Positions 41,225 to 61,633 of a stretch of DNA of 64,000 nt are shown in pieces. Both the position numbers and the translations under genes were made by a program. Numbering within the stretch: the first letter of the stretch is position 1; every line of letters begins with the position of its first letter. This DNA is from Desulfobulbaceae bacterium (GTDB lineage Bacteria; Desulfobacterota; Desulfobulbia; Desulfobulbales; SURF-16), in assembly GCA_027859235.1 (NCBI GenBank), contig JAQIBE010000263.1, positions 3,568 to 67,567 on the forward strand. Reading direction: 5' to 3'. Below the pieces are notes generated by a model that saw only the letters and a list, made by a program, of their open reading frames with translations, did not search any database and was not told the origin of the DNA.

Positions 41225-41747
41225 TTGGTCTCAAAAAGAAGGTTTGAGATGGATAGATAAGTACCGGCGTCTCAGAGTTGAGCTCCGTTGTTGAACAGTG
41301 CCTACGGTTAACAACTTTGCGACCATCAGAATCATTGAGAATCATCTGCTTAGAGGTGATTTCCTTCACCACAGTCCAGTGCCCCCATTTACTGGTTTCG
41401 ATGACTATGATGACTGATCGTGGCTCATCTGAATTCAAAAAACCAGTAAGCGTATCCCAATACTCGTCAATAGACACCTTTGCCCTTCGGTGGAATGGTT
41501 TTGTTCGGATCAGGTCATATTGAGGGCAAATGATGTCCCTGAGGATAATAGAGAGATCAACTACGGAGATTCCGGTTGTGATGTAAACTGAGGCAGGCTT
41601 TTTCTTCTCAAGGGTCAAAACAGCTTCATAGAGCAGATCACTCCCTTCATTGTGGCTTATCCTTACTATGAGTTTAAGGGCATTAATCACAGCGTATATA
41701 CCACAAAGACCGTCAAGCTGACCTTGCCTAAAGGGCTCCCGCTTCAT
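41217..41747 (-). CDS. putative papain-fold (C39/BtrH-like) cysteine peptidase
   Basis: The ATG at 41747 overlaps the DUF2958 TGA as ATGA. The longer track start at 41810 would overlap that gene by 67 nt. The motifs Q-x6-C (QGQLDGLCGIYAVINAL), a later GHWTVV and NDSDG fit a Gln/Cys/His/Asp(Asn) arrangement. Confidence 0.5.
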   Translation of the reverse strand: MKREPFRQGQLDGLCGIYAVINALKLIVRISHNEGSDLLYEAVLTLEKKKPASVYITTGISVVDLSIILRDIICPQYDLIRTKPFHRRAKVSIDEYWDTLTGFLNSDEPRSVIIVIETSKWGHWTVVKEITSKQMILNDSDGRKVVNRRHCSTTELNSETPVLIYPSQTFFLRPND

Positions 41748-42064
41748 TTGAAAATAATCCCTGGAATATCTTTGGCAGGTCGTACTTTCCAAAATTCTTC
41801 CAACTCGCAATCTACTTCAAGAAAGCCAGCCTTAAGCTCCTTTAGTTCAGAAAAAGATACGTAACCCCACTCCGCATTAAAATAGTCACTATTCAAAATG
41901 GCATAACCAAAAAACAAGTCATTGCCGTCATATTCCGCAATGTACCAATCACAACCACCTATGAAAAAATGTAAATAAATGAGCTTATATCCAAGCTCAA
42001 TATCCTCCGTCGCGTATAACTTTGGGATCTGGGCAAGCCGGTCTTTAGTTGGTTCATTCCACAT
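41744..42064 (-). CDS. DUF2958 domain protein
   Basis: 106 aa. IPKLYATED...LHFFIGGCDWYIAEYDGNDLFFGYA...EWGYVSFSELKEL matches my recollection of DUF2958, which is common on plasmids and ICEs. AAGGAG lies upstream. Confidence 0.7.
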   Translation of the reverse strand: MWNEPTKDRLAQIPKLYATEDIELGYKLIYLHFFIGGCDWYIAEYDGNDLFFGYAILNSDYFNAEWGYVSFSELKELKAGFLEVDCELEEFWKVRPAKDIPGIIFK

Positions 42065-42184: not shown

Positions 42185-42820
42185 CTACTCTATCAACATG
42201 TTAGCGAGAGATTGATTAAGTTCAGGTAAGACATTAGCATACAAGGCTGTCATATTAAGGCTGGCGTGACCCAGTTGTTTCTGGACAAAGCGTAGATTAC
42301 TTGTCTTCGCCAGAAGCAACGTGGCATAGGTATGCCGGGAGCTATGAATCGAGTAGTGAAGTGGAAGGTTTGCTGCTGCCACTGCCTTCTTGAAACTTAT
42401 TTCAAGGGCTGTGGTTGTGTAGTGGCGACCTGATCTACCAGCAAACAGTGGTGAGTCTTGACTAGCAGACTCCTGCCAGGCTCTTTTATGTGCAATATAT
42501 TGTCTTAGGTGACTAGCAATCTCTTGATCAAGGTAGACATCCCTTTTCTTTCCATGAGCGCCACGCCCCTTCCCGTGCCTGACTATCAGATAGTTATCTT
42601 CACCATTAACGAGGTGCAAATCACTCATCTTGAGAGCCGCTATTTCTGATACCCGTAACCCTGAATTAAGGGCCAAGTGAACAAGCATATACCGGGTCAC
42701 CCAAGTCTTACGGCCACACTTGGCATCCTGAGCCGCATTATATGCGCAGATAGCAAGTAGGCGTGAGACCTCGTGAACCGACAGAAACTTGTCACGGGTA
42801 ATGGAGTACCCGTTTCGCAT
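42185..42820 (-). CDS. tyrosine recombinase/integrase, catalytic domain only
   Basis: 211 aa with GLRVSE (Arg), HSSRHTYATLLL (H-x-x-R), LGHASLNMTALYANV (His, Tyr). No N-terminal SAM-like DNA-binding domain is present. Confidence 0.85.
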   Translation of the reverse strand: MRNGYSITRDKFLSVHEVSRLLAICAYNAAQDAKCGRKTWVTRYMLVHLALNSGLRVSEIAALKMSDLHLVNGEDNYLIVRHGKGRGAHGKKRDVYLDQEIASHLRQYIAHKRAWQESASQDSPLFAGRSGRHYTTTALEISFKKAVAAANLPLHYSIHSSRHTYATLLLAKTSNLRFVQKQLGHASLNMTALYANVLPELNQSLANMLIE

Positions 42821-43520: not shown

Positions 43521-43612
43521 TGGAGCGGGCGACGGGATTCGAACCCGCACTAATGGGGTGGCGCCCCGAACAGGCTCTGAAGGCCTGCGTGCTACCGTTA
43601 CACTACGCCCGC
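43521..43612 (-). tRNA. non-Sec tRNA with anticodon UCA (UGA-reading), glycine-type acceptor stem/discriminator, long variable arm
   Basis: Reverse complement reads GCGGGCG-TA-GTGT-AACGGTA-GCAC-G-CAGGC-CTTCAGA-GCCTG-TTCGGGGCGCCACCCCATTAGT-GCGGG-TTCGAAT-CCCGT-CGCCCGC-T-CCA. It is 92 nt with 7/5 acceptor/T stems, U33-U34C35A36, G1:C72 C2:G71 G3:C70 and U73. Confidence 0.8.
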
Positions 43613-44953: not shown

Positions 44954-47056
44954 ATGAGTAAACATACAGATCAGAAGAACTCTTCGTCATTTGACGATTG
45001 ATTGCATAACCCCAAAAATATTTTAGAAAAACATAGCTGAAGAAAAGTATATTTAATTTCAGCCCTCACTGCATTATTCATAGCGTCTCCAGCTTTAACA
45101 TTTTCAGCAGGAGATGATCTTGTCAGATCTGACGACCCCATATCATTAAACTCTGAAGAGACAGGGACTCGGTGACGTTTGGCCCATGAGTTTACCCTGA
45201 AATCAGATGCCACGACCAGACTTTGGTTAACGCCTGAATATAGCGACCTGACCAAGTTTAGTGTACGCGCAGGTCTGGCATACATGTTTACCAATAACCT
45301 TGGTGCAGGACTTCTAGGGTCCCTTGGTGAAGATAAAAATGAAATCCTGGTAAATGCTGGTTGGCAGTTGGCGGATAATCACCGTTTTGTGGCTACCTTT
45401 AGCCATCTTCAGCAAAATTTAGAGTTTAACTTTGTCTCAGGTGAAGACGAAGCAGAGATCACCCAGAATAGTGGGGGGTTGAGTTATCAATACCTCGTTG
45501 CCAAAGGCATCCTCAATACCGTTGAGTTAAACGCCTATCTTGCCGACACCGGCAGCGAAAAGCTTACCGACAAGACATATGGCATTGATACCGCAACCAT
45601 ATTCGAACTATGGAACGATCCTCGTCGTATTGCCGGGGGTAAAGTTACAGGTATACAGAGTAAGATCACCCTTCTTCCATTTTCTGGGACGATCTTGACA
45701 CTAGGCGCCGGTATGGAAGAGTTGGAGTATGACTATCTTGCTGGAGCAGATAAAACCAGTAGGGCGACGGGTGAGGTTGAATTAACCCAAGAACTACCTG
45801 GCAACTTTCTTCTCGATGCCTGATTTTCAACCATGGCCGCGATGGATACTTGTAACATTGGTCTCGCCAAGGATTTCTCTGGTCATCAACTTGGCATAGG
45901 TTATACCAATATTCAAGGTCGAGATGGCGTTTTGAACGATAATCAATATACTCTTTCATACAGCTATACTTTCGGAAGTAGCCAAAACACTTCAACCACA
46001 AGCGGTAGAGACACGCTAGCAACAGCTTGAAGTCCTGATAAAGAACCTGCTAACCCTTGGTCAAGCTCCCTGCTTAATCAAATCGCCAAACGCCCCAGTT
46101 TTCTGCCATCTCAAGTTGTTGCCAAAGTCGACACGACTGTTGAACAGGAACGACTTATCGCCATTGACAAAACAGGCATGTCAACCGGAGCAACCATTGA
46201 TTCCGATACTGGTATTATAACCGTCCCTCTAGGTGTTGCCGTTACCACTATAGCCTGAATTACCCTTGATGGTGGTCCATTCACCAATACGGGTCAATTC
46301 AGCTTGACTAGTGATGATATCATTATCAATCCTGATCTCATCACTGAACCTGCTGTCTGAGATACGGACCTGTATGTTGTCACTGTCAACAATTCTGGCG
46401 GTGGTACAACAGTAGTTTCAATTACCGTTAGCCACGGTTCGGTACAGATTGACAATATCACTGTGACAAGTTGAGATGCGTCACTAAACATCACAAGTGT
46501 TGCATTCTTCTGAGCTATACCGAATCAAACAAACGCTTCATATAATAATCTTATATTAAAGACTAACGTAGATATCAAATCTATTGATTCGATAGTTGCA
46601 TCTTTAGGTTGAGCAGTAACTATTACCTGAATCAGCGGAGACCAGGTTTCATTCAACTGGACAGGAACACCAACAACATGAGCTAACACATTCACCCTAA
46701 TAGCAACAGCCAACAACGACCAAGAAACAACAACTTCAACAACAGTTACAATGGAAACTCCTAACATAGTTCCAACTTTAAATTCAGTTTCTGTTTCATG
46801 AACTACATTAATTAGTGCTTGAGGTGATAATTATACTATTGTTCAACTTACTGATGAAGATATTACCTTTACTGCTAATTGAACCGATGCAGATTGAGAT
46901 AATTTGAAAATAGTGATTAACTGAACAATATATAATTGAACTTCAGAAACTATTACTTTAAATTTAGCTCAAGGTGAAATAGTACAATTTTATATTAAAG
47001 AGTTTGATTGAACTGATTATAGTAATGAAATATTGGTACAAATTGCATGAAGATAA
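44954..47056 (+). CDS. putative secreted outer-membrane-anchored adhesin (signal peptide, beta-barrel-like region, Ig-like repeats), translatable only with TGA as a sense codon
   Basis: The ATG at 44954 follows AAGGA. The frame has 701 codons to the TAA at 47054, with 20 in-frame TGA and no TAA or TAG (hand-translated). Track ORFs 45179..45823 and 45833..46030 are same-frame pieces of it. The signal peptide KVYLISALTALFIASPALTFSA lies between TGA number 2 and number 3. Confidence 0.6.
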
Positions 47057-47063
47057 AAAAAAT

Positions 47064-47089
47064 GAGATTAAATCTCGTTTTTTTTTTTT
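47064..47089 (+). terminator. AT-rich hairpin plus T12 tract after the recoded ORF
   Basis: GAGAT-taa-ATCTC is followed by GTTTTTTTTTTTT and preceded by an A8 tract, so it may act in both directions. Confidence 0.5.
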
Positions 47090-47266
47090 ATATATATTTT
47101 AACATGATCAATTACTGAAAATCCACACCAAGAACAGTAACCCCTCGCAGCATTTTTGTTGCTCTTGTTCATCTCTGGTCTTCGAGCAACTAAGGGTCAA
47201 ATCTTTATTGTTGACACTTGCAACCAACACGCTGAAATCAGAAAAGAAAGTTACGCTTTACATTAC

Positions 47267-47310
47267 GAAAGGCAATTGAGGTTTTTACCTTAATTGCCTT
47301 TCGTTGTTTT
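47267..47310 (+). terminator. strong orphan rho-independent terminator
   Basis: GAAAGGCAATTGAGG-ttttt-ACCTTAATTGCCTTTC followed by GTTGTTTTT. No annotated ORF ends here. Confidence 0.6.
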
Positions 47311-48108
47311 TAGAGAGAGTTCTGGGGGCCAGTATATCTAACTCCTCGCCTCGCCTTTTCTAATCGCAAGTCTGAGAATTCGGAGCGTTTGCCTGTAGAC
47401 TTCAGCCGCTGTTAGTTCGGAGTAAGAAATTACCATATAATCATGTGTCGATTTGATCGAGGACGTTTTTGATGCCACTTCAAAGATCTTATTTTCTCAA
47501 ACTGTCCTCGGATTAACCTTCCTACTGTGAATGTCAGATTCGATAATGCCTTCCCACCAGAACTGTAGAGCTTAAGGATAGAATTTTCTGAGGGGAAAAG
47601 ACGAGCACCCTCCATTAGAACGGTCGCACAGGATGACCTCTTAGAAGGTTAGACTGAGCATGACACCAACTGCTTTTGGCGCATACAGCTGCACGAGTGA
47701 ACGTACTGTCGTCAACTTATTGACTTTTACAGCTGAAACCGACCGATATATTTAAGATAATATACATAATCTTAAATATATTCATTGCTCACTGCAGCAG
47801 TGAGCAATATTAAAGACAAAACATATGACATTGACAGTCTATATACAGTAGTAACCTAAACTTGGGCTTAGTTGAGAAATTCCTGAGGTTGGATATGGCA
47901 ATGTTAACGCTTCAAACACTGGCAGAAAGCCGCAGGTTTACCGTCCATGTGCTTTGACTGGTTATGTTCCATTTATAGGCGACCTCCATCAATTTATGCG
48001 TGTCCTGGATTTTTTGTCTCTCAAGCGCAAGGCCATGTGAAATATGTGACCTGCCCCCTTTACCTGCTAATTTCTCAGCTTATTGGCCGGATGTGGATGT
48101 TGAGCTAC

Positions 48109-51100
48109 CTACCAGTCCGACTTGTTCGGATAGTTCACGCGACCCTTGAAGTACTTCACGTTGAGCGACTTATCAATCAGCACGACACCAATAGAATGCG
48201 AAAACCGCCCTCTGCTTCGATAGGTCTCTTTCTCATAACGCTGAAGGTCGAAGAGCAATAGTAGCTCCCTGTCGTACTTCATCAGCACTTTCTTAAGTAC
48301 GCTTGATTTGCAGAGAAGCCTCAGCCCCGGATGAGGGCCGTCTTCTTGATTGGTTTCATCGCGCCCCCAGGCCTCGGCCCAGAGCGATAGCATCTCGTGA
48401 TTGTTATCCCAGAAACGTCCGAATGCATCCTGCCGTGTCAGCTTACATAACTCCGAATAGTCTTGAGCAAGACGCGGTCGAAGATTAGCGACCGAAACGC
48501 CATGTGGATCATGTTCATCCAGACGGGTTTCGCCGGATGGGCAGACAATCCAAGGTGAGTACTCCTTCTTCTCGCTGCGAAGATATTCGTCATCGTCTTC
48601 GCAGCCCTGGAAAGTAGGTACATAGGCCAGTATGGGCTTTTCGCGGATGAGCTTTCTCGCAAACTGCGCAGCCCTTTTGGGCGAAACAAGCGCAGAGGAT
48701 AATCTGACTTCAACACCATCGGATGAATACCATCTGCCCTGAATAATCAGTTCCCTGTCAATCCCTTTTTCAATGTCGAGGGCGGCGAGTCCAATAATCT
48801 TCTTCTGATCGCCGGTTATCGCGAGCCCCTTCTTCTTAGATTCAAGCAGCCTCACAGAGGCGTCATCAGGCGTCCTGTCCGTTCCATCGGAAAGCCATAA
48901 GCCATCCTTGCGCGTAAGTCCGTAGCGGCCGAGCCACTCTCCCCAAGGGTCGTCCTCGTACCACCAGTCGTCGGTTACAGGATGGGCGGCAAGCAGCTTG
49001 CCAGCAGCGATGAATAGAGCATGCCAGCCGAGCTGTTGCCCATACCCGTGAAAGCGGGTCGTCATTTCATGAGAACTTCGCCCTCGCGACTCGCGGCCGC
49101 CATCCTCATACATATGCGTCATTGACGGATCGCTCTTTTGTACGATGCCCGACATCATGTCATCAACTTCCCAGCAGCCCTTGCCGAACACTTGGCTGAG
49201 GCTATCAACGTCATGCTTCTTAAATTCGTACTCCAAATGAAACCGAAAGGGCGGCTCGGGTACTGTCTTCGGACGGCCCTGGTAGAAGCCGCCGCCGTTG
49301 CGGCTCTTCTTTCGTAAACGCGGATGCGGGGACTTGTCGGCATTACGCACAAGCTTGAGCGTGGCTGCGTCAAGCGCCAGTTTGCTGCGATCTACACAGG
49401 CAAGAAGCGCTTTGGCGGCAAAGTGGCGCATAAGCACATGCGGCTCGTCTTTTTCCATGATGACAGCCAGGAGTAGATCCTTGTAACGCGCCACCTGATC
49501 GGGATGATCGATAGCGGCCCGCGCTAGGGTGATCAGGAGCCATAGCCGTGCATGCAGGTAATAGAACACGAGCTCTGGTGCCTGAAACGGTTCAGCAGTC
49601 TTCGTGTCGAAGGCGGCAACAACCGTGTCGACAATGCCCCAGCGCCCGAACTTTGCAAATCGGCGTATGCAGTGAGCCGCGCGCCATCTGTCAACCGCAT
49701 GTGGCGAACCGATGACACGCCATATTAGCCCAGCAGCGATTTCGTCGAAGTCATTTACTGGGTAGCAGCCAGCTTTCCACGAGCCGTCTGTTACGTTGTC
49801 GGCAATCCGTGCCGAGTCACTCGACAGGAGGCGCTTCAGCGCAAGCTGCCCCTGCCCTTCATCCGCTTCCGGGCATATGAAATTTGCGAACGCAAGCCAT
49901 ACTGATCCGGCGACGGTGCTATCAGGACGTGAGTAGACCTTTATCACCTCAACGACGAGTTCGGCCATGGGCACGCCCGTGAACTCGGATATCTCCTTAA
50001 TATTCGCCCCCGAGAATCGACCGTCATCGACCAAATCATCGGCATGGGCAAGAATCAGAGGCTGTGCCAGGCTCCTATAGACACCCGCAAGCGCCGCGGA
50101 TGATCCGCCCCAGGCTTCCTTCGCATCTTTCAGTTCTGTGAATTTCCAGTAGAAAAACAGATGCTCCAGATTGGCAACATTGCGAATGTATTGACCGCGC
50201 GCAGCAAAGGGCACTTTGGCACGCAGCGCAGAAAAGAAGCCGCCTTTTAGATCATACATATTCCCCAGCGCATTAAATCCGTCGATGGCCTTTACAAGCG
50301 ATGCCTCGTCAGTCGGGGCCGTCGCTTCGGCTATACGAACGAGTGCATCCTTGTTTTCACTGTCACGTTTGGCAGCTTCTCTACGCATCTTCGGATCTAA
50401 GTCACTGCTACTATCATACGCAGTATTGCGCCCTTGCCTTGCGGTCTCGTATCGGTCCCGCGCGGCTTTCAGGTGCTTAGTTAGATCATGCGATGCACTC
50501 AGCGCTTCGTCAGCCAGAGCGTAAAGTGTCTCGACAGTCTCGTCACTCGCTATCGTCGGATTGTCATCCTCGAACTGTGTTATCAGCTCCGTAATCACTT
50601 CGGCATCCGGCCCGGCTTGCTGGCGCAGCGCTTTCGAAAATTCTTTTGTGCCCGCAAAGAAATACTCCGCGGGTTCGGCAAGACGGTTAATACAAAGTGC
50701 ATCCTTCGGATCGATCTTTTCCGCTTCGAGCATGCCCGTAAGATAGGTGAGAAGCGTGTTGTTCAGAGCTACCCTGTTGCGGTCATCCCAGCGACTGAGC
50801 TTGGCCAGGCCACGCATCCCGGCTGCCTTTGCCATGCCGCGACCGTACGCACCCCAGAAAAACTTCTCGGGCTCCTCCCCCATATTGAGTTCGCAGATAT
50901 TGCTCAGCGTGTGAAAGTCACGTTCTTCCAGTTCGTCACCTTTCATCTCCGATGCGAACAAGAGCAGCTCATTCGTGAACAGGTAATCACCCGAACCGAT
51001 TGCATCCATCTGCTCCAGACCATTCCGGAAGTACGCAGCAGCCTCATCGAGGCTGGCTGGAAGTATTGCCCGGCCAAGAGTGCCAAAGAGAGATGCCCGA

Positions 51101-54100
51101 TAGGTAACGTCATCCTCTTTTTCGATCATCGCGCGCGCCGTTACGGCCTGCTCTCCTGCAATCGAGTGCAGCGGGGTTCGTTGCGCGAGAATCGCAATGA
51201 TACGAACCAAGTCACTGGCGTTGCTCATATGGGCGTGTACGGCCGTCAGCATGCGCTCTATGGACTGTGGCTTCAGCTCGCTGTGAGACCACAATGTGAA
51301 GAGAACAGCGTCAAGACCCAAGAATTGAAAGAAGGGATCGATATCCCCAACCCGGTAATGGTCGCGATTCTTTCGAGTCTGCTCCCAGGCTTCCACAAGC
51401 TCGACAAACCGCTTGTCGATGGTCCGCGCCGATGCCGTGAGTGCAGCCGACAGTGCCTCTGTGAGAGTAAGCAGCGGCTCCAGGCGGATGTCAAGAAAGC
51501 GCTCAGCAGCCTGCTGTTCATCATAGCTAATGGCATTAGTCGGCACGTTCTTGGTCTGTCCATCATCGTAACGCGGCTTGCGCGGAAGCTTGGAGAGCTG
51601 CTCCTTGGCCTTCTCTCGGAAGATTTTTCCAGAAATGGTCTTCGGAATGCGCGCGCAGACCGATACGAGCTCCTTTGGTAGTAGATCCTTCTCGTGAATA
51701 GCGCGCTTCTTTGCGGCAGCAAGCAGGGCAATCCGGAATATATAAACGAAGACATCGGTGCGGCTGAACGCGTCACGGTATGCCCAGATTCCGGGCCGGT
51801 CATGCCGCGCTCTTAGTGAAATAGATTGAGCCTCAGCGCCGAGGCCCAACGAGAGCGCGACGACGGCCGACTTCCTCAGGCCGTCTTCGAGTTCGTAGTT
51901 CTTGCGGCTTGAGTATCTTTGCGGCAAGTCAAGCTTCGTCACCTTCTTGCATAGAGCGGCAAGTTTTACGCAAAGCGGCTTGCGTCTAGAGTTCGCCAGC
52001 TCGTGAAACGACAAAGCAGCCGCAAGCGGACCGATACTGGAGAGCGCATCGATGAACTGGCCAGCCCGGCGAGCGGGCTGCGTTCCTAGCAAGGTGGCAA
52101 GATGCGTGTATCCGAGGACGAGCTGAGAGACTTCAAAGGCATACCAATCCCGCCAACCTGTGAGGTAGCTGGCCGCACCTTCTGTGCGACCTTCCGAGAT
52201 TAGAAAGAAACTTGAGGCAGCGATGTCGGCCTGGTCAGGAACCGGTCCACGATCAAAATCTTTCCGCTCTGTGCGCCGGTAATGCTGTATCCACTCTTCA
52301 TTTGCATGGGCATGACGGGTCGCCTCTGCCAGATCACCCGATAAAACATTGACGATAGTAAGACGCGCATGTCGGGTTCCTGGCCAAGCCGTTCTTATTT
52401 CAAATAGTCGCCGCCGGGCGTCAACATCTTCGGCAGCAACGACAAGATCAGGATGTTCCAGCAGGTAATCGGCTCCACGCTGATCAACCTCGGCTATGGT
52501 CGATAGCTCGACGAGCAGCCGCACAAGGCTGTTGTAGTCAACCTTGAGAGCCGCGTGCAAAGTGGCTGCCTTAAGCCGGGAATATTGAATATTGCGCTTA
52601 CCAACAGTGCTGGTAATTGAGGCGGGAATACGATCATCGAAAGCAAGTGCGAACAGACGCTCACCATCATCAAGTTCGTGTAACAGACGCGGAAGCGCAC
52701 GGGCTGCATACACCGACGCATCCTGGCGAGCAAGGAGATTGGATGCTACACGCTCAAGCGCATCACGTGATGTCGCGTATCGCTTGTGAATCAGCGTTTC
52801 CGTTGGCTCATCACGGAACATGAGCCCATGATTGGTGCGCTCCAGTAGAGGGCTCAGGTCTGAAGCAAAGCTCTCAATGGCGGCGAGATCCATGCCATGA
52901 GCGGCGGCATACTCATCCACCGGCACCGGCGGAGGAAGCACCGCCAGCCCTGCAAGAAAGGCACTGAGGTCATTCTCCTCATAACCTTGCTTTGTGGCCA
53001 AAGAGAGTGCATCCGTGATTCTTTGTTGAATCAGGTCATCCAGCTCAATGTCCTTGTTGACCTCGGATGGATCGAGAAGGCCACGACCTGCCTTGATCAG
53101 GTAATCCAGCACACGCGGATTCCCGCCGGACCGGGCGTGCGCGACGTTTACTTCTACGTTCGTGACGCTTTTTAGGCGCGCGCGCAAAAACGCGGCCGTT
53201 TCATCCTTGGTAAACGGGCATAGTTCGAATTCATCGAACTTGGCGTAGGTTTTTGGCTTGCGTTCTGTACGGCAGGATACGATTAGGTTTACGCCGTCAA
53301 TCGGTTCCGTATCGATACTCTCCAGCAGCTTGATGGGAAAGCAGTCTTCGCTTGCCTGACCGGCAGCAAAGGCTGCATTGTCGATGGCATCGATAAAAAT
53401 CGCCAGCTTGCGTCCTGGCATCATGCGCGAGATGGTGTTCAGGCACTGCGTAAGGCGGCGGCGGAATGTGCTGAGCAAAGTGTGCACATCAGGACTGTCC
53501 GGTAGCATCGGATCGCAGAGGCCGCGAAATGCCAGTGTATTCGCAATATGAATAAGCCCCTTTTTGGGTAGGTGTCGCGCGTCTTCCGGAGAGCGGTAAG
53601 CACCGCCACCAAAACAATCGAAGAAAACAACCTCGTGGTCCGTGGCTATCTTCGAGGCGAGCGAATCCATAAAGACTGTCTTGCCCACGCCACCGGTCGC
53701 ATGAATGAGAAGCGGCGTTGACGTGCTGCCGATGCGGGTCATGGCCTCGCGGAGCTGTTCCCGCGCCAGTACTTTGTCGACACCGGCGATGGCCGCTTCA
53801 CAGGGAAGCAGGTCCTTCGGGGAACCGATCTGAAGAGCGGCCAGCACGTCAGTGCGTCTGATCAGATTTCGGTCGGTACCAGCATAACCGGCTTTGTCGC
53901 GGACAAGTTCCCGAAGCTTCCCGAGCCGGGCGGCAGCAATCGGGTCACTCGTGGCAGACCAGTCAACGAGCAGGTTGGCAAGTTCGCCCTTTGTTTGCGG
54001 CAGGCTTCCGGAGCGGCCAATGATTTTGAGCTTTCGTGCAAATGCCGCCAGTGGCTTTCCCGACAAACCGGAAGCGGTCTCGAACTGCTTCGCCTGCTCC

Positions 54101-54588
54101 TTAACATCGCCAGTTGGGTTTGCTCCCGTTGCCGTAGCATCTATGGCTTGAAGCAGTAAATCGCTGATTGGCTGGTTTGTGACGAGCTGAAAGTCGAGTT
54201 TGTCTTCGACCGCTTTGGCACCGTACTTGCGTTTAAATGAGCGGTAAGTCTCGCCAAACTTTTCTACTGTCTTCTTTGCGTGAGAGGCACGGAAATCCTT
54301 GTTCTGATTAGCGATGGAGTATTTGAACTGGGCAAATGTCGTTCGGACGGCATTCTCGAAATTTGGCCGTGGGCCGTAGTAGAACGTCAGGTCAGCGACC
54401 TCGACTGTAGCAGCGGACGCCCCGGTCTGATCGTCAGGTGAAGGCCCTTCAACGGCGATTGCGGTCAGGTCGGTGTCGGGCCATAGCAACTGCGTCGCTT
54501 TACGCGCCGTCCAAGCCTCGTGAAACTCATGGCCGTCCCGCGATGCCCTGACTTTATCAATTTTTTTACTTCGTCTACCAAGCCCCAT
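48109..54588 (-). CDS. giant STAND/NACHT-like P-loop NTPase (Avs-like architecture) with a possible N-terminal nuclease-fold effector and a long helical-repeat C-terminal region
   Basis: 2159 aa in a GC-rich block. Walker A is LLIHATGGVGKTVFMDSLA and Walker B-like is LAIFIDAIDNA. The N-terminus SRDGHEFHEAWTARKATQLL ... VEVADLTFYY ... FAQFKYS is reminiscent of PD-(D/E)xK Cap4/DUF4297-type domains, a low-confidence recollection. Confidence 0.7.
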   Translation of the reverse strand: MGLGRRSKKIDKVRASRDGHEFHEAWTARKATQLLWPDTDLTAIAVEGPSPDDQTGASAATVEVADLTFYYGPRPNFENAVRTTFAQFKYSIANQNKDFRASHAKKTVEKFGETYRSFKRKYGAKAVEDKLDFQLVTNQPISDLLLQAIDATATGANPTGDVKEQAKQFETASGLSGKPLAAFARKLKIIGRSGSLPQTKGELANLLVDWSATSDPIAAARLGKLRELVRDKAGYAGTDRNLIRRTDVLAALQIGSPKDLLPCEAAIAGVDKVLAREQLREAMTRIGSTSTPLLIHATGGVGKTVFMDSLASKIATDHEVVFFDCFGGGAYRSPEDARHLPKKGLIHIANTLAFRGLCDPMLPDSPDVHTLLSTFRRRLTQCLNTISRMMPGRKLAIFIDAIDNAAFAAGQASEDCFPIKLLESIDTEPIDGVNLIVSCRTERKPKTYAKFDEFELCPFTKDETAAFLRARLKSVTNVEVNVAHARSGGNPRVLDYLIKAGRGLLDPSEVNKDIELDDLIQQRITDALSLATKQGYEENDLSAFLAGLAVLPPPVPVDEYAAAHGMDLAAIESFASDLSPLLERTNHGLMFRDEPTETLIHKRYATSRDALERVASNLLARQDASVYAARALPRLLHELDDGERLFALAFDDRIPASITSTVGKRNIQYSRLKAATLHAALKVDYNSLVRLLVELSTIAEVDQRGADYLLEHPDLVVAAEDVDARRRLFEIRTAWPGTRHARLTIVNVLSGDLAEATRHAHANEEWIQHYRRTERKDFDRGPVPDQADIAASSFFLISEGRTEGAASYLTGWRDWYAFEVSQLVLGYTHLATLLGTQPARRAGQFIDALSSIGPLAAALSFHELANSRRKPLCVKLAALCKKVTKLDLPQRYSSRKNYELEDGLRKSAVVALSLGLGAEAQSISLRARHDRPGIWAYRDAFSRTDVFVYIFRIALLAAAKKRAIHEKDLLPKELVSVCARIPKTISGKIFREKAKEQLSKLPRKPRYDDGQTKNVPTNAISYDEQQAAERFLDIRLEPLLTLTEALSAALTASARTIDKRFVELVEAWEQTRKNRDHYRVGDIDPFFQFLGLDAVLFTLWSHSELKPQSIERMLTAVHAHMSNASDLVRIIAILAQRTPLHSIAGEQAVTARAMIEKEDDVTYRASLFGTLGRAILPASLDEAAAYFRNGLEQMDAIGSGDYLFTNELLLFASEMKGDELEERDFHTLSNICELNMGEEPEKFFWGAYGRGMAKAAGMRGLAKLSRWDDRNRVALNNTLLTYLTGMLEAEKIDPKDALCINRLAEPAEYFFAGTKEFSKALRQQAGPDAEVITELITQFEDDNPTIASDETVETLYALADEALSASHDLTKHLKAARDRYETARQGRNTAYDSSSDLDPKMRREAAKRDSENKDALVRIAEATAPTDEASLVKAIDGFNALGNMYDLKGGFFSALRAKVPFAARGQYIRNVANLEHLFFYWKFTELKDAKEAWGGSSAALAGVYRSLAQPLILAHADDLVDDGRFSGANIKEISEFTGVPMAELVVEVIKVYSRPDSTVAGSVWLAFANFICPEADEGQGQLALKRLLSSDSARIADNVTDGSWKAGCYPVNDFDEIAAGLIWRVIGSPHAVDRWRAAHCIRRFAKFGRWGIVDTVVAAFDTKTAEPFQAPELVFYYLHARLWLLITLARAAIDHPDQVARYKDLLLAVIMEKDEPHVLMRHFAAKALLACVDRSKLALDAATLKLVRNADKSPHPRLRKKSRNGGGFYQGRPKTVPEPPFRFHLEYEFKKHDVDSLSQVFGKGCWEVDDMMSGIVQKSDPSMTHMYEDGGRESRGRSSHEMTTRFHGYGQQLGWHALFIAAGKLLAAHPVTDDWWYEDDPWGEWLGRYGLTRKDGLWLSDGTDRTPDDASVRLLESKKKGLAITGDQKKIIGLAALDIEKGIDRELIIQGRWYSSDGVEVRLSSALVSPKRAAQFARKLIREKPILAYVPTFQGCEDDDEYLRSEKKEYSPWIVCPSGETRLDEHDPHGVSVANLRPRLAQDYSELCKLTRQDAFGRFWDNNHEMLSLWAEAWGRDETNQEDGPHPGLRLLCKSSVLKKVLMKYDRELLLLFDLQRYEKETYRSRGRFSHSIGVVLIDKSLNVKYFKGRVNYPNKSDW

Positions 54589-54936
54589 ATTTCATTCCAA
54601 TACACTGAGACCGGCTATGAATGACAACCGGAAGTTAACTGCTTGAGCACTACCATTTGCTCCACGAATGCCACATGCTCCTCAACAATCAGGCAAGAGC
54701 AGTTTGGCCGGAATTTTGACGCCGACAGCTAAGGGCACCCCTCTACAACCGGTCGTAGCTGATCGCAACTGGACACATAACGCCAAAGTTAACCCGCCAG
54801 CCGACCAGTTTGGTAATTAATTTTGCGCATTGTAATTTGTTGAATCTGGCTCAAGAAATCGCGCGTGCTCGCTGGTCGGCGTTGAACGCATTGTTCGGCT
54901 CGTCCTTGCACTTGAGTTTATATCTGCCTAATCTAT

Positions 54937-55863
54937 TTAGTAGATTTCCTCTTTTATTAGGCCTACACACGACAGGTTGATGACAGTTAACATGTTATCG
55001 CACATATGCTCGATTCCCATCAATGTTGATAAGTCAGGTGCGAACTTCTCTCCTTCTTGAAAGATATTGGGGAATGGACACCATGGTTGTGATGTTAATT
55101 TTGCAAATTCTTCGGTAACTAAGGGTTCATTATGGACTAATAAATTTCTTAGATGAGCGACAGTGTCGAGAGATTCTGCTACTCCATTTAATAGTTCGCC
55201 CATACCTCCCATTGAAAGTTTTGAAATTTGAATATATGAACTGAAGACTTTTTTTATACCATCATAAGCTTTTTTTCTGTGCCAAGTATTTAACCTTTCT
55301 GTCCATTGAATATCCCATTCTTTATTTAGTTCAGGATCTTCATTTTTTGTTCTATATAGCTTCCTTAAATCTCTAAACTGTTTGCCACGTAGAAGTGATG
55401 ATGGATTGTGGTTAAGAAAAATTTTATAAGATATAAATATATACTCTTCAATAGCACTATAAATCTCAATAATCCCATTTTCTGCAATCAAAGGTTGTAT
55501 AGTCTGATAGTTATCTGCTACTTCATCGCCATTCCATAAAGCGATTTTTGATCTGCCCATTGTTTTATCTTTCTGAACTCTAAATGAATCAATCCAAAAT
55601 TTTCCATTCTTTTTAAAATCATCATCAGAATATCTCTCGATAGCTTTTTCTATAGAATTGAGGCAAAGTGCCCATTTTATATATGCACTTCTAAATTTTG
55701 CTCGCCAATCACCTATTTGTTCTGTTGTTTCATTTAACCATTTTTGCCCTGCGGTTAGCGCAGGTACTATAATATTATTTGGACTGACAAATTCTGGTAA
55801 ATCAGTAGCATTTATATATTTATGTCCTACAAAATCTACTCTTTCTTTCATTCGCTTTCCCAA
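54937..55863 (-). CDS. HEPN-motif protein (putative RNase/abortive-infection-type effector)
   Basis: 308 aa at about 33% GC. AHLRNLLVHNEP contains an R-x4-H HEPN signature near the C-terminus. The protein is otherwise unrecognised. Confidence 0.5.
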   Translation of the reverse strand: MGKRMKERVDFVGHKYINATDLPEFVSPNNIIVPALTAGQKWLNETTEQIGDWRAKFRSAYIKWALCLNSIEKAIERYSDDDFKKNGKFWIDSFRVQKDKTMGRSKIALWNGDEVADNYQTIQPLIAENGIIEIYSAIEEYIFISYKIFLNHNPSSLLRGKQFRDLRKLYRTKNEDPELNKEWDIQWTERLNTWHRKKAYDGIKKVFSSYIQISKLSMGGMGELLNGVAESLDTVAHLRNLLVHNEPLVTEEFAKLTSQPWCPFPNIFQEGEKFAPDLSTLMGIEHMCDNMLTVINLSCVGLIKEEIY

Positions 55864-56496
55864 ATAAATATATAGTTAAAAACAGCTTTTGGTTAATTGA
55901 TTTATTAAAGCCGAACATTGTCAATACATAGAAAATGTCCATAGTATCATCCTATATCTGGACTGTTTTTCCGCCTATTCTGATATCAAGACTGGTTGTA
56001 TGGAAAAAGCTGTCCACTTATTACCGCAGTATCGATATTTTCCAGTTATTCACAGATAAGGATGTAATGTGGAAATAGTAGTTTAATCTTGTTGCCTCAC
56101 ATTCTTACGGAAACTAACCCCATCTTTGCTATTAATCAATCAGGACAATATATTATGAGCAAATAGCATAGGGAACCAATGCCAATCTTAACCATTTAAG
56201 AAAAACGGCCAGTTAACATTGTTCCTGATTATCTCTTCCCGATAAATTCATGAGCAAATTCTACTTTTAATCCGCTATTTTTCGGGGGGATTACCTTATC
56301 AATTATTTGTTGCGCCCCCCTTTTAAATTTCCAGACGTTGCCGTATTGTCTTTTCATTTTATAGCTAATCATCTAATTGAAGTGTTTAACTATTTGAATT
56401 TTTAGGGATTAATGAGTACTCTCGTTTTGTTAGGAGTAGGTCTTTTATATTTAGGGGCTCGGTGATGAATCTTTAGATATATGTTAACTTTTTAAC

Positions 56497-56682
56497 ATGG
56501 AAGATCGCTGGTTATCTGTTGAAGAAATAGCCAAATACTTATGTGTCAGCAAAGACACCATATCCAACTGGATCAATTGGAAAAATATGTCTGCTCATAA
56601 AGTTGGACGGTTATGGAAGTTCAAGCATGAAGAAGTTGATGAGTGGGTGAAATCAGATGGAGCTGCAGAAAGTGACAGATAG
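56497..56682 (+). CDS. excisionase/MerR-type helix-turn-helix DNA-binding protein
   Basis: 61 aa. WLSVEEIAKYLCVSKDTISNWI...AHKVGRLWKFKHEEVDEWV is the classic HTH_17 pattern. It overlaps the brxA start. Confidence 0.8.
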   Translation: MEDRWLSVEEIAKYLCVSKDTISNWINWKNMSAHKVGRLWKFKHEEVDEWVKSDGAAESDR

Positions 56683-57286
56683 TAAGTACAAAATGTCCTT
56701 CACTTCCGGAGGCCTGTTTTTTAATGAATCACTGCAGGTTGCTGAATTATTTAATGAAATTGGTGATTGGCAGAAAACCCGTGATCACGTTTTATTAGAT
56801 AATTTTCTGCAGGCTCGAACAGAGAGCAGTGCCAAACGCAGAGCCCGAGAAATATGTTTTCGCTTAGAGTTGTTAACAGACGCCCAACTACAATTGCTCA
56901 TTTCAGGTTCACGACATGAACAGCAATACCTTCTCTGGGTGGCGGTCTGTAAACGCTACTCTTTTGTCCATGAATTTATGATGGAGGTTGTACGGGAAAA
57001 ATACCTGCGTATGGATCTCCATCTTCACTACCAGGATTACGAGATCTTTTTTGCCGACAAGGCCGAGTGGCATGAAGAACTGGAACACCTCCGGGACTCA
57101 ACACGGGCAAAACTTAGACAGGTTCTTTTTAAAATCATGCGAGAGTCAGAAATTCTGTCACCTGACAATATGATCATCCCCGGCCTTCTTACTGAACAAT
57201 TAACTAAGGTGCTGACGGCAGACCACCCCGCCTTACTTGCACTGTTCCCTGTGTCTGACATGGATATCAACTCATGGTTAGCGTAA
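56657..57286 (+). CDS. brxA: BREX protein BrxA (DUF1819)
   Basis: 209 aa. Y.MSFTSGGLFFNESLQVAELF...DW..TRDHVLLDNFLQARTESSAKRRAREICFRL matches BrxA, and it sits before brxB and brxC. Confidence 0.85.
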   Translation: MELQKVTDSKYKMSFTSGGLFFNESLQVAELFNEIGDWQKTRDHVLLDNFLQARTESSAKRRAREICFRLELLTDAQLQLLISGSRHEQQYLLWVAVCKRYSFVHEFMMEVVREKYLRMDLHLHYQDYEIFFADKAEWHEELEHLRDSTRAKLRQVLFKIMRESEILSPDNMIIPGLLTEQLTKVLTADHPALLALFPVSDMDINSWLA

Positions 57287-57894
57287 ATTACGACATGAAC
57301 CAATTTTCAATTAATGACAGTTTCGATCATCTGCTTAAACTCATCAGCAGTGAGCGGTTTCTGAAGAAACAGGGGCTGGGCAATGAAGTCCCTTTTTTTA
57401 TATGCCCCTTTCCGCCTCAGAAGGCTGTGGACATGGAAAGGCTCCGTATTCAGTTACGAAATAAACTCGAACAACAGGGTATTCGTATTCTTGATATCAA
57501 TCTTTATGATCTGGCCGTTGATATCCTAAAAAAACGTAATATTTGGGATCGTATTCTTGAAACTGAAGGGTCTATAGACAAAGAGCATCTCAAAGAACTC
57601 CTGCAGGGCATTCTTGATTCACAAGCACACTTGATCCCTGCCATAGCAGAGGAAATGGCTAAAGCCGATTTTGATGTGATGTTTCTCTCCGGAGTTGGGG
57701 AAGTTTTTCCATACATTCGCTCCCACAATGTCCTGAACAACCTGCAAAGTACCGCCAAAGAAAGGCCTACTGTGATGTTCTTCCCTGGTGCTTATACCCA
57801 ATCTTTAGAAGGCGGCGCATCCCTGGATCTCTTTGACTGTTTACATGATGACAAGTATTACCGGGCATTCAACATTTTCCACTGCGAGATTTAA
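57274..57894 (+). CDS. brxB: BREX protein BrxB (DUF1788)
   Basis: 206 aa with FFICPFPPQ and LSGVGEVFPYIRSHNVLNNLQ, and the expected gene order. Confidence 0.85.
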   Translation: MVSVNYDMNQFSINDSFDHLLKLISSERFLKKQGLGNEVPFFICPFPPQKAVDMERLRIQLRNKLEQQGIRILDINLYDLAVDILKKRNIWDRILETEGSIDKEHLKELLQGILDSQAHLIPAIAEEMAKADFDVMFLSGVGEVFPYIRSHNVLNNLQSTAKERPTVMFFPGAYTQSLEGGASLDLFDCLHDDKYYRAFNIFHCEI

Positions 57895-57929
57895 CCGGGA
57901 CAAACTACGCCCACATAAAAGGAAAACCC

Positions 57930-60900
57930 ATGCTGCTAAGTGAAATATTCGAGAAACCGGTAGATCGGTCTATAGAAGGTGTTATCAAGGCTGATGATGA
58001 AGCCAGTCTGCGCCTGGAGGTAGAGGAATACGTTCTCACCAACGAGGTTGCGCAACGGCTGGAAAGTTTTCTTGACGCCTATAAAAACTATGACGGTGCA
58101 AACGGCGTCTGGGTGTCTGGTTTCTTTGGTTCCGGAAAATCGCATCTCCTGAAGATCCTCGCCCTGCTCCTTGAAAATCGCTCCATTGACGGCACACCCG
58201 TCCTCGACCTGTTTCTTCCTAAATGTGCGGATAATGAAATTCTGCGCGGTGACCTTAAACGGGCCGTAGAAATCCCCTCTAAATCCATCCTCTTTAATAT
58301 TGACCAGAAAGCTGACGTTATCAGCAAAACCCAGTCAGATGCCCTGCTCTCCGTCTTTGTGAAGGTCTTTGATGAAATGTGCGGCTACTACGGCAAGCAT
58401 GGCCATATTGCCCAATTTGAGCGGGATCTTGATGGCCGTGGCCTATATGGCAAATTCAAAGATGCCTATAAAAATATCGCCAAACAGGACTGGACAGCAG
58501 GCCGGGAACAGGCATTGCTCGAGGGTCATAATATAGCCAAAGCCTACTCCCAGGTCACAGACACGGATGAAGAGTCCGCAAAGGGTATCCTTGATAAATA
58601 CCGCAGCGACTACAAGCTCTCCATTGAAGACTTTGCCGAGCAGATTAATACCTATATCGAGCAGCAGGAGGCCAATTTCCGCTTAAACTTTTTTGTTGAT
58701 GAGGTCGGTCAATACGTCGCAGATAACACAAAACTCATGACAAACCTGCAGACCGTGGCAGAAAGTCTGGCCACCAAATGCAGAGGTCGGGCCTGGGTCA
58801 TCGTTACTGCCCAGGAGGTCTTGGATGATGTTGTCGGTGAAATGACCAAAAAACAGGCCAATGACTTTTCCAAGATCCAGGCCCGTTTTGCCAACCGTAT
58901 GAAGCTTACCAGCGCCAATGTAGATGAGGTCATCCAGAAGAGGCTTTTACTTAAAAACGAAAGTGGCGTGGCGACACTATCTGATGTCTACCATGAACAG
59001 GTAAACAATTTTAAAACCCTGTTTGATTTTGGAGACGGCTCCCAAAGCTATAAGAATTTCAAGGACCGGGACCATTTCATCCATGCCTATCCCTTCATCC
59101 CCTATCAGTTCACCCTGTTCCAGGCGGCCATCCAAAGCCTGTCACAACATAATGCCTTTGAGGGCAAGCATAGTTCCGTAGGCGAGCGCTCCATGCTTGG
59201 CGTGTTCCAGCATGTGGCAAAGCATATCGCTAACCACAGCATCAGGGAGCTGGCCACCTTTGACCTGATGTTTGAAGGAATCCGCACTGCCCTGAAGGCT
59301 CAGATCCAGAGGGCTGTTCTCAACTCAGAACAACACCTGGGCGATGAGTTTGCCGTCCGTGTCCTCAAGGCACTGTTTCTAGTGAAGTATGTCAAGTCGT
59401 TCAAGGCCACTGTTCGTAACATCAGCATCCTCATGCTGGACAATTTTGACCGCAACATCACTGATCTGCATAAACAGGTGGAAGCGGCCCTGAACCTCCT
59501 TGAACAGCAAACCTATATCCAGCGCAATGGTGAGTTGTATGAGTTCCTTACCAATGAAGAAAAGGATGTGGAGCAGGAGGTCAAAAATACGGACGTTGAA
59601 AACTCGGACGTTTCAGAAGAGCTGGTCAAACTCGTGTTTGATTACCCCTTAAAGTCAAGAAAGATCCGTTACGATGACAATGGCCAGGATTATGCTTTTG
59701 CCCGTAAACTCGATGACCGCTTATGCGGCAAAGACCATGAGCTCACCATCCATATCATCAGCCCGTTTCATGAGCAGGTCGATAATGAAACCACCCTTGC
59801 CATGCAGTCCATGGCCAAAGATGAACTGCTGGTTATCATGCCCGCCGATGATCGTTTCCTCCATGATCTGCTCCTCTATAAAAAGACCGACAAATATGTC
59901 CGTCTGAATATGACCCAGACCCAGCAGGAGGCGATTGGACGGATTCTTACCGAGAAGAGTTTTCAGAACCGTGAGCGCTACAAGGCTCTGCAGGATAGAG
60001 CCAAGGATCTGCTCGGCAAGGCAAAGCTCATTATCAACTTGAAACCCCTTGAGTTAAGCAGTACTGACCCACAGACCAGAATTACTCAGGGTTTTTATGA
60101 TCTGCTTCGCCGCACCTATCCCAACCTGAACATGCTGCGGGGGATCAAATACAGCGAGAATGATATAGCGACGTGCCTTAAACCGTCTGGGGCGACACTC
60201 TTCGGCGGTGATGAGAAAATGATGAGTGAGGCAGAGCACGAAATGTTCTCCTTTATCCAGGGCAATAGCCGCAATGGTGTGCGGACAACTCTGAAAAGCC
60301 TGGTGGAGCGCTTCGAGAAGAAGCCGTACGGCTGGTACTTTGCCGCCATCCTCTGTATCACGGCCAAACTCTGCGCCCGTGAAAAGATTGAGGTCAAATC
60401 CGATTCAAATCCTCTGGAAGATACGGCTTTAGAAAAGGCCCTGCGTAACAGTCAGGGCCATGGAAATATCATCCTTGATCCCCAGATTGATTTTACAACC
60501 TCCCAGGTCCGGCAATTAAAGGAGTTTTATGAAGACTTCTTTGATGCCCCCCCCAAAGCAAACGAGGCCAAACCCCTGGGCAAAGAGACTGGCGCAGCAT
60601 TCAAAGAACTTCTGCAGGCCTTGGAGCCAATGGCAGGCATGGTCTCACACTACCCGTTCTTGACAGTGCTGAAAGAACCCATCAGTCAGCTTCGAGAGCT
60701 TGTTGGCAAAGAGTATAGCTTCTACCTGACCGCCCTTGCCAAGCTTGAAGATAATCTCCTCGACATGAAGGACAATGTGCTGGAACCGGTGCGGCGCTTC
60801 ATGTCAGGCCAGCCCAAAGATATCTATGACGAGAGCAAGCGTTTTCTTGAAGAGCAGAATGCCAATTTCTCAGATCTTCAAGGTGATGAGGGCCAGCAGA

Positions 60901-61472
60901 TAAGTGATATCCTGGCAGACAAGGACTGCTTTAAGGGCAACAAGATGCAACAGCTCAAAGGCCTGGTTGACAAGCTGAAAGAGCAGATTGCCACCCTTAT
61001 CGAAGAGGAACGAGCAAAAGCCTTAGAGATGGTGCAAACCCTTGCGGATCGGCTTGTCGGCCTGGATGAATTTGCAAATCTTCAACAGGAAGAACAGCAA
61101 AGACTACAAGCGCCCTTCCACAAAATCCAACAGGAACTGCAACAACATAAACTGATTGCCGTTATTCGCGACAGGTTGCGGAGTTTTGAAGAAGGAGAGT
61201 ATTCACGACTACTGGCGGAAGTCGGTCGTTTAGCGCATGCTGCCAAGTCAAAGAACGACAATGGTAAAACAAAACCAGCAGCAACAGCTAAAAGCACCGG
61301 CGGCACGGGTGATACCAGTGAAAAAGAACCGGAATATGTCTTTGGCCGGTCGTTAAAGGTAGATTTCTCCAAACCGATGCTGGTGGATGAGAAAGATGTG
61401 GAACAATACCTCACTATGATGCGAGAAGCCTTACTTAAAGAAATCCATGCTGGCAAACGGATACAGGTATAG
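57930..61472 (+). CDS. brxC: BREX ATPase BrxC/PglY
   Basis: 1180 aa. The Walker A GFFGSGKSHLLKILALLL is at the typical position. Size and context are right. Confidence 0.9.
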   Translation: MLLSEIFEKPVDRSIEGVIKADDEASLRLEVEEYVLTNEVAQRLESFLDAYKNYDGANGVWVSGFFGSGKSHLLKILALLLENRSIDGTPVLDLFLPKCADNEILRGDLKRAVEIPSKSILFNIDQKADVISKTQSDALLSVFVKVFDEMCGYYGKHGHIAQFERDLDGRGLYGKFKDAYKNIAKQDWTAGREQALLEGHNIAKAYSQVTDTDEESAKGILDKYRSDYKLSIEDFAEQINTYIEQQEANFRLNFFVDEVGQYVADNTKLMTNLQTVAESLATKCRGRAWVIVTAQEVLDDVVGEMTKKQANDFSKIQARFANRMKLTSANVDEVIQKRLLLKNESGVATLSDVYHEQVNNFKTLFDFGDGSQSYKNFKDRDHFIHAYPFIPYQFTLFQAAIQSLSQHNAFEGKHSSVGERSMLGVFQHVAKHIANHSIRELATFDLMFEGIRTALKAQIQRAVLNSEQHLGDEFAVRVLKALFLVKYVKSFKATVRNISILMLDNFDRNITDLHKQVEAALNLLEQQTYIQRNGELYEFLTNEEKDVEQEVKNTDVENSDVSEELVKLVFDYPLKSRKIRYDDNGQDYAFARKLDDRLCGKDHELTIHIISPFHEQVDNETTLAMQSMAKDELLVIMPADDRFLHDLLLYKKTDKYVRLNMTQTQQEAIGRILTEKSFQNRERYKALQDRAKDLLGKAKLIINLKPLELSSTDPQTRITQGFYDLLRRTYPNLNMLRGIKYSENDIATCLKPSGATLFGGDEKMMSEAEHEMFSFIQGNSRNGVRTTLKSLVERFEKKPYGWYFAAILCITAKLCAREKIEVKSDSNPLEDTALEKALRNSQGHGNIILDPQIDFTTSQVRQLKEFYEDFFDAPPKANEAKPLGKETGAAFKELLQALEPMAGMVSHYPFLTVLKEPISQLRELVGKEYSFYLTALAKLEDNLLDMKDNVLEPVRRFMSGQPKDIYDESKRFLEEQNANFSDLQGDEGQQISDILADKDCFKGNKMQQLKGLVDKLKEQIATLIEEERAKALEMVQTLADRLVGLDEFANLQQEEQQRLQAPFHKIQQELQQHKLIAVIRDRLRSFEEGEYSRLLAEVGRLAHAAKSKNDNGKTKPAATAKSTGGTGDTSEKEPEYVFGRSLKVDFSKPMLVDEKDVEQYLTMMREALLKEIHAGKRIQV

Positions 61473-61633
61473 AGTAACGCATGTATTGAATTTTATACAC
61501 GCGTGCATTGGCTCGTGTACAAGCGACTTATACGCTTTGGCGCATAAATTTTGCGCCTTTTGCACCCGGCATATACATATTCAGCGGTTCAGGTGGATAC
61601 CGACAGCTGAAAAATACAAACTGGAAACGGTAT

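Follow-up and report, generated by a model that had tools for sequence, protein, structure and literature searches.

What kind of protein is encoded by a single, GC-rich gene of 6.5 kb that stands in an AT-rich island of a sediment bacterium, and from where did it arrive? The question is raised by a stretch of 64,000 nucleotides from a Desulfobulbaceae bacterium (assembly GCA_027859235.1, contig JAQIBE010000263.1, positions 3,568 to 67,567), the whole of which is denoted here as the window. The gene is complete and occupies positions 48109..54588 on the minus strand. According to the list of open reading frames (ORFs) and the translation, it comprises 2,159 codons plus a stop, and its ATG start aligns with the ATG of close homologues. 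An original prediction, made from the letters of the window, had described this 2,159-aa ORF by several peptides, each of which was found at its place in the protein: SRDGHEFHEAWTARKA at residue 16, VEVADLTFYY at 62, FAQFKYS at 85, HATGGVGKTVFMDSLA at 296 and DAIDNA at 400. The analysis points, with a probability of roughly 80%, to a single-protein anti-phage system of the Avs3 family that would work as SeAvs3 of Salmonella enterica does. This reading is supported by homology to SeAvs3 in all domains, by shared fold and colinearity, intact motifs and purifying selection, by the stand-alone nature of the gene, by its location in a defence island adjacent to BREX genes and by its horizontal gain as a single gene.

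The family assignment was approached with profiles, sequences and folds. Among the PADLOC profiles, Avs3a matched the protein with an E-value of 6.3e-205 and was the sole significant match, the runner-up reaching 0.006 with 14 bits. In NCBIfam, the model NF041816 (‘AVAST type 3 anti-phage nuclease/ATPase Avs3a’) scored 9.5e-235 and 782 bits and was the sole match at E ≤ 1; none of the other Avs models in PADLOC or NCBIfam matched at E ≤ 1. When all chain sequences of the PDB were searched with phmmer, a single significant match was obtained as well, namely SeAvs3 (8DGC, determined with the large terminase of phage PhiV-1), at 1.3e-124. The alignment consists of three colinear stretches (query residues 13-824 against 7-823, 1156-1299 against 1110-1256, and 1595-2126 against 1530-2054), and in a PDB search with a profile built from 28 homologues the SeAvs3 match rose to 7.8e-182. 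While PADLOC, NCBIfam and the PDB reveal the family, Pfam alone does not: there, the P-loop region (aa 274-471) resembles NACHT, AAA_16 and NPHP3_N, all sub-threshold; the NACHT score (PF05729) amounts to 25.6 bits against a gathering score of 26.7, and many homologues carry a precomputed PF05729 match. The protein is certainly a STAND NTPase, and its membership of the Avs3 (AVAST type 3) family specifically, not of a generic Avs or NACHT group, is supported. An antiviral STAND protein of the Avs-like or NACHT type had been proposed beforehand; profile matches of this kind were found, and profile, sequence and fold searches all named Avs3.

For the fold searches, AlphaFold2 (AF2) models were computed in two overlapping pieces, aa 1-1100 and aa 960-2159, with alignments of 36 sequences. 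The predicted local distance difference test (pLDDT) yielded 75 for the N-terminal and 77 for the C-terminal piece, the latter with a predicted template modelling score (pTM) of 0.63; of the sensor, residues 607-959 are covered by the N-terminal piece alone. Foldseek searches against the PDB, which the original prediction had proposed for the nuclease, STAND and C-terminal parts, retrieved 8DGC first with both models. For aa 1-1100, 8DGC matched at 5.3e-36, followed by the STAND-TPR protein 6MFV, Avs4 (8DGF) at 7e-07, Avs5 (9NC9) at 1e-3, Cap4 (6WAM/6VM6) at about 1e-3 and the plant NLR RPP1. For aa 960-2159, chain A of 8DGC matched at 1.2e-25 (TMq 0.48 over 1,273 columns) and was the sole significant match: the runner-up was a generic solenoid at 2e-3, and nothing else fell below 1e-3. 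Since the C-terminal half matches 8DGC alone, the sensor is specifically of the SeAvs3 type. Avs sensor clusters are defined by E ≤ 1e-10 together with a template modelling (TM) score of at least 0.40 (PMC13581612), and against 8DGC the model of aa 960-2159 lies within both limits.

The protein shows a modular structure with an effector, an NTPase and a sensor. The N-terminal effector (53839..54558, minus strand, aa ~11-250) is a Cap4-type (DUF4297-like) PD-(D/E)xK nuclease domain according to its alignment to SeAvs3 from residue 7 onward, the AF2 model and the Foldseek matches. The model displays an alpha/beta core of restriction-endonuclease-like type, with strands at residues 41-47, 61-71, 82-91 and 131-141, of which the second carries D66 and the third Q87-x-K89. 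These three residues are invariant in the 28 homologues (59-90% identity) and align to D and Q-L-K of SeAvs3. The D/Q/K arrangement is the active-site pattern of Cap4-like nucleases (PMC11914072), and on the basis of invariance and alignment the active site is predicted at 54322..54393 on the minus strand, with D66 encoded by 54391-54393 and Q87-F-K89 by 54322-54330. The tentative earlier call of a PD-(D/E)xK nuclease at the N-terminus is borne out by the SeAvs3 alignment, the invariant residues and the Cap4 matches 6WAM and 6VM6; the N-terminus is an effector domain.

The nuclease is followed by the STAND NTPase module (52771..53781, minus strand, aa ~270-606), which comprises the nucleotide-binding domain and the helical and winged-helix subdomains. 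It is colinear with the SeAvs3 ATPase and is further supported by Foldseek and by the sub-threshold Pfam matches. The Walker A motif or P-loop, HATGGVGKTVFMDSLA (53656..53703, minus strand, aa 296-311), aligns to HADAGVGKS of SeAvs3; within its core GGVGKT (residues 299-304), G299, G300, G302, K303 and T304 are invariant in the 28 homologues. The Walker B motif AIFIDAIDNA (53374..53403, minus strand, aa 396-405) aligns to CIIIDAADNA of SeAvs3 and contains the invariant D400, and R440 of the module is likewise invariant. A P-loop about 300 aa from the N-terminus and a DAIDNA Walker B motif had both been noticed from the sequence, and both hold.

The C-terminal part was originally described as more than 1,500 aa of helical, repeat-like sequence, a description that stands for aa ~607-1911 and fails for the last ~250 residues, which are beta-rich. 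The first of these two parts, a TPR-like sensor solenoid (48856..52770, minus strand), is almost completely alpha-helical in the AF2 models and is matched by SeAvs3 in Foldseek. The second, a C-terminal sensor domain (48112..48855, minus strand, aa ~1912-2159), is defined by beta strands that appear in the model of aa 960-2159 from model residue 956 onward; it overlaps the phmmer stretch 1595-2126 that aligns to SeAvs3 1530-2054. Its counterpart in SeAvs3 and EcAvs2 binds the ATPase domain of the terminase (PMC13601566). Conservation of the sensor within the clade is highest in aa 1151-1250 and aa 1851-1900, and both segments harbor patches shared with SeAvs3: LSRWDDR against ISRWRDR, and the block LGWHALFIAAGKLLA...WL.R....R.D..WLSD. 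A third patch common with SeAvs3 (PHVLMRHFAAKALLA against PHVLIRHFAARTLLA) is located at aa ~1713-1727. Judged from their conservation, the shared patches may be candidate sites of ligand contact or autoinhibition.

Several observations weigh against a straightforward transfer of the SeAvs3 model to this protein. The NCBIfam Avs3a model has an equivalog cut-off of 2,800 bits, which fits close enterobacterial-type relatives, and the 782 bits scored here stem from two matched model stretches; missing this cut-off marks a distant Avs3 family member, not an orthologue-grade match. The identity to SeAvs3 is low in the Foldseek alignments (24% for aa 1-1100, 18% for aa 960-2159), and the TM-scores against it are modest (0.33-0.48) because the relative domain positions differ. 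The sensor between aa ~825 and 1595 is almost devoid of detectable sequence similarity to SeAvs3, save one weak patch, so that the ligand specificity could differ. In addition, the PADLOC profiles are those of a 2023 release, and Cap4-bearing Avs families described more recently, Avs7 among them, may be missing from the PDB copy; hence, a closer named family for the N-terminal half might exist.

The same observations give room to a reading in which the Avs3 scaffold has been retargeted, i.e. a Cap4-nuclease STAND protein whose diverged sensor recognizes one or more phage proteins other than the large terminase. The low identity and the barely alignable middle of the sensor would fit such a change, as would the wide range of phage proteins sensed by different Avs families that resemble one another in architecture (PMC13581612). 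However, in structure the sensor half matches SeAvs3 specifically, no other PDB entry being significant, the most conserved patches of the clade (aa 1151-1250 and 1851-1900) are the very ones held in common with SeAvs3, and the C-terminal sensor, through which SeAvs3 and EcAvs2 contact the ATPase of the terminase, is retained. Given that fold, shared patches and C-terminal domain of the sensor have all been preserved, a retargeted sensor is considered unlikely, albeit the foremost of the alternatives.

An Avs3 system acting in the manner of SeAvs3 stays the preferred reading. SeAvs3 binds the phage large terminase directly, forms tetramers and cleaves double-stranded DNA (PMC13601566, PMC13581612). 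With an identity of about 20% to SeAvs3 and the equivalog cut-off missed, we infer by analogy, drawing on the retained sensor patches and C-terminal sensor, that the protein of the window shares the terminase trigger, the tetramerization and the DNA cleavage. In the resting state, it would be a monomer with an inactive nuclease. Upon infection, the helical and beta-rich C-terminal sensors would enclose a freshly synthesized protein of the phage, most probably its large terminase subunit. Ligand binding would shift the STAND NTPase to its ATP-bound state and lead to a tetramer, bringing together four N-terminal Cap4-type nuclease domains. The assembled nucleases would then degrade double-stranded DNA indiscriminately, resulting in abortive infection.

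Relatives of the protein are numerous and uniform. A word-index search found 958 of them; the best 120 of these 958 are almost all of ~2,150-2,170 aa and 59-90% identical, a few being shorter and apparently truncated. They include proteins from Aminicenantes, Desulfobacterales, Bipolaricaulota and Pseudomonas, and where public names exist, these read only ‘NACHT domain-containing’ or ‘ATP-binding protein’. When a single genome of each GTDB species was scanned, 124 copies were confirmed, distributed among others over Gammaproteobacteria, Acidobacteriota, Nitrospirota, Myxococcota, Planctomycetota, Verrucomicrobiota, Thermotogae and Leptospira. When the sensor by itself served as the query of an exhaustive phmmer search, 1,371 representatives of clusters at 50% identity matched, of which 449 did so at E ≤ 1e-30. 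The full-length sensor relatives all measure 2,120-2,215 aa and carry the sensor at ~960-2155. A pairing of this sensor with swapped effectors was considered and rejected, the shorter relatives looking like fragments; the uniform full-length size indicates a fixed architecture in which no effector swapping is seen.

Selection acts on the whole protein. The ratio of nonsynonymous to synonymous divergence (dN/dS), determined against seven homologues, amounts to 0.09-0.21 in every domain, which indicates purifying selection. Moreover, a protein identical to the product of the gene is encoded on two JGI metagenome contigs.

The base composition sets the gene apart from its surroundings. Its GC content is 0.551 (0.593 at third codon positions, GC3), compared with 0.393 for 46000-48108 and 0.363 for 54589-56656; the gene immediately upstream, coding for a 304/308-aa protein, has 0.334. 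The backbone at 1-36000 with housekeeping genes such as mnmE and hpt has a GC content of 0.500. These values describe a GC-rich block in an AT-rich island that begins just past hpt at ~36 kb, and the change in GC falls at the ends of the ORF. The higher GC content relative to both flanks and to the upstream HEPN-like gene, which had been estimated by eye, is thus confirmed by measurement. A 397-aa ORF on the opposite strand (50488..51681, plus strand) had been regarded as a shadow of the coding sequence. It was rejected as a real gene: the corresponding frame is closed in 12 of 12 homologous genes, whose longest antisense frames reach 128-246 aa, and an ORF that is not kept open in its homologues is a shadow of the Avs3-like gene.

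The region downstream of the gene (46000-48100) consists of ~2 kb of AT-rich DNA that is devoid of ORFs longer than 80 aa. It contains two hairpins, one with a perfect-looking 18-bp stem (47265-47304) and one with a 12-bp stem (47783-47809). A longer contig from another sample (L001), which covers part of the same locus, terminates within this stretch.

The separate acquisition of the gene, likewise proposed from the GC step, is corroborated by nucleotide homology across phyla. BLASTN comparison of the region 44-58 kb with all fetched loci revealed 88-89% nucleotide identity to copies in four other organisms, namely the isolate Marinimicrobium alkaliphilum SW121 and three metagenome-assembled genomes (MAGs), one each from Aminicenantes, Proteobacteria and Desulfobacterales. 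In all four copies, the homology is confined to the interval from 48077 to 54564/54588, i.e. the ORF plus ~32 nt past the stop codon; this short 3′ flank (48077..48108, minus strand) travels with the gene. On the upstream side, flank alignments showed 25-100 nt common to subsets of the copies and nothing farther. The close copies have a GC content of 0.52-0.55 regardless of their flanks, whereas distant relatives follow the GC content of their hosts (0.36-0.66), and the synonymous divergence (dS) between the cross-phylum copies is 0.33-0.39. The GC step, the homology bounded by the ORF, the constant GC content of the close copies and the low dS together support an arrival of the gene, essentially bare, that was independent of the AT-rich DNA around it.

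Along the gene, dS varies two- to four-fold against the close homologue loci L008, L007 and L003; in the comparison with L008, the NTPase has a value of 0.17 and the nuclease one of 0.61. Such variation suggests mosaic recombination among alleles of the clade. A bolder proposal concerns the clade as a whole, which is deep-branching and uniform (~2,155 aa, 59-90% identical; Desulfobacterota, Acidobacteriota, Gammaproteobacteria and others). It may differ from SeAvs3 in its trigger, and, given that homology stops within about 100 nt of the ORF, it may spread across phyla as a bare gene by a cassette-like mechanism not yet described; this combination is put forward as a speculation with rather poor odds.

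A foreign gene might also be a dead one. In a further reading, the gene would be an inactive relic, acquired for defence and no longer functional or expressed in its present host. Its GC content, foreign to the surrounding island, would agree with this, and so would the search for expression signals: a promoter and terminator scan yielded no excess over shuffled sequence, promoter-like sites included, and immediately upstream of the gene no sigma-70 promoter stood out convincingly. Decay is contradicted by the 6.5-kb frame, which is unbroken with all catalytic residues intact, by the low dN/dS against close relatives and by the identical protein on the two further metagenome contigs. A relic is accordingly judged very improbable.

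The genes that surround the relatives are in line with a role in defence. Raw counts, taken without a statistical baseline, include ResIII (six times), SIR2_2 (four), integrases (seven), DISARM components (three, DrmA/DrmD) and Dsr1 (two); N6_Mtase, AbiV, KAP NTPases, GmrSD, type I restriction subunits, PtuA (Septu) and AbiEi occur as well, next to transposases, conjugation genes and ordinary housekeeping genes. The homologues are thus frequently found beside defence or mobile-element genes, and the possibility that they reside mainly outside defence islands, raised with the original prediction, did not materialize. A conserved partner gene was not found: among 123 ORFs flanking 66 relatives, the largest BLAST cluster had five members. 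A non-defence STAND NTPase, i.e. a signalling or regulatory ATPase that is Avs-like in layout only, could draw on the uninformative NCBI names of the relatives and on the sub-threshold Pfam NACHT match, but it is scarcely credible in view of the specific end-to-end homology to SeAvs3, the N-terminal nuclease with intact active-site residues, the patchy cross-phylum spread with near-identical copies, and the defence-type and mobile-element neighbours.

Within the window, a BREX type 1 operon (56497-64000, plus strand) is located at a distance of ~2 kb from the Avs3-like gene. The operon starts with an HTH_17 gene (~56497-56682, mapped from L001), followed by BrxA (56657-57286), BrxB (57274-57894) and BrxC (57930-61472). 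After BrxC, a PglX-type methyltransferase gene runs past the end of the window; in the longer contig L001, its product has 1,157 aa. The name Avs3a implies a two-gene locus with an ‘Avs3b’ in the original description. SeAvs3 is functional alone, hence an Avs3b companion is not treated as defining. Among the window neighbours, no PADLOC or NCBIfam defence-model match besides BREX was detected that could be such a companion.

Between the Avs3-like gene and the BREX operon, an orphan protein of 304/308 aa is encoded (54937-55863, minus strand, GC 0.33), with an RNLLVH motif of the Rx4H, HEPN-like type. It has no Pfam, PADLOC or NCBIfam family and five homologues in 5.8 billion proteins, and its 304-aa version has an identical counterpart, annotated as hypothetical, in a Desulfobulbaceae MAG, which points to the likely host of the window. 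As a partner of the Avs3-like protein it was rejected: elsewhere, its homologues are not located beside Avs3-like genes, and the upstream genes of the relatives all differ (TIR, DUF4145, helicases, integrases). In two close relatives, small defence-type genes on the same strand stand 115-175 bp upstream of the Avs3-like gene, a TIR-domain gene in the Desulfobacterales MAG (L003, 9376-9828) and a DUF4145 gene in the Aminicenantes MAG (L034, 9284-9886; the same contig as L004, 9278-9880). As these belong to different families, they look like neighbours, not partners.

Further elements were observed in the AT-rich island. A 693-aa protein with two AAA+ modules is encoded at 38823-40904 (minus strand) and matches the PADLOC IetA models at 1.9e-37; adjacent to it, two small ORFs (197 and 106 aa) without a family are located at 41217-42064 (minus strand). 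The IetA-like gene and the small ORFs could be a further defence module of the island; an IetS-like protease was not seen. At 43521-43612 (minus strand), a tRNA was found whose anticodon is UCA and whose variable arm is long; ARAGORN classifies it as tRNA-SeC, but in Rfam it matches only the generic tRNA family, with 62 bits. It adjoins the gene of a short (211-aa) tyrosine recombinase (42185-42820, minus strand). A bona fide tRNA-Sec is encoded at 2272-2369. The two UCA-anticodon tRNAs were rejected as a duplicated attachment site bounding the island, their sequences being only about half identical. Perhaps the tRNA at 43521-43612 is a UGA-reading or allo-tRNA-like gene carried by the island.

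The assignment has consequences for annotation. The protein and hundreds of relatives that are named only ‘NACHT domain-containing’ or ‘ATP-binding protein’ become assignable to the terminase-sensing Avs3 family, and the gene joins a well-characterised class of systems as a new member that had carried no label before. Anaerobic bacteria of sediments, like other non-model phyla, possess pattern-recognition receptors of the Avs3 type and have exchanged them recently.

Compared with known systems, the effector-NTPase-sensor layout and the NTPase fold are shared with EcAvs4 (8DGF), Avs5 (9NC9), Avs1, Avs2 and bacterial NACHT proteins. These other antiviral STAND proteins differ in that none of their PADLOC or NCBIfam models matches at E ≤ 1 and their sensors do not resemble the C-terminal half. 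The N-terminal ~250 aa have the same fold and D/Q/K pattern as the CBASS effector Cap4 (6WAM, 6VM6) and the Cap4-like domains of HamA and SeAvs7. Cap4, however, is switched on via a cyclic oligonucleotide that binds to its SAVED domain, whereas the nuclease of the present protein is joined to a STAND NTPase and to a protein-sensing solenoid. SeAvs3 differs in its overall identity of ~20%, in the middle of the sensor, where 770 aa are unrecognizable by sequence, and in its host, an enterobacterium as opposed to a Desulfobulbaceae-type sediment bacterium. Nevertheless, it is the closest counterpart. Both are single-gene systems of similar length (2,092 aa in SeAvs3, 2,159 aa here) with the same domain order of Cap4-type nuclease, STAND NTPase, long helical sensor and beta-rich C-terminal sensor; the Walker A, Walker B and D...QxK motifs align, and SeAvs3 is the best structural match of the whole protein and the sole significant one of its sensor half.

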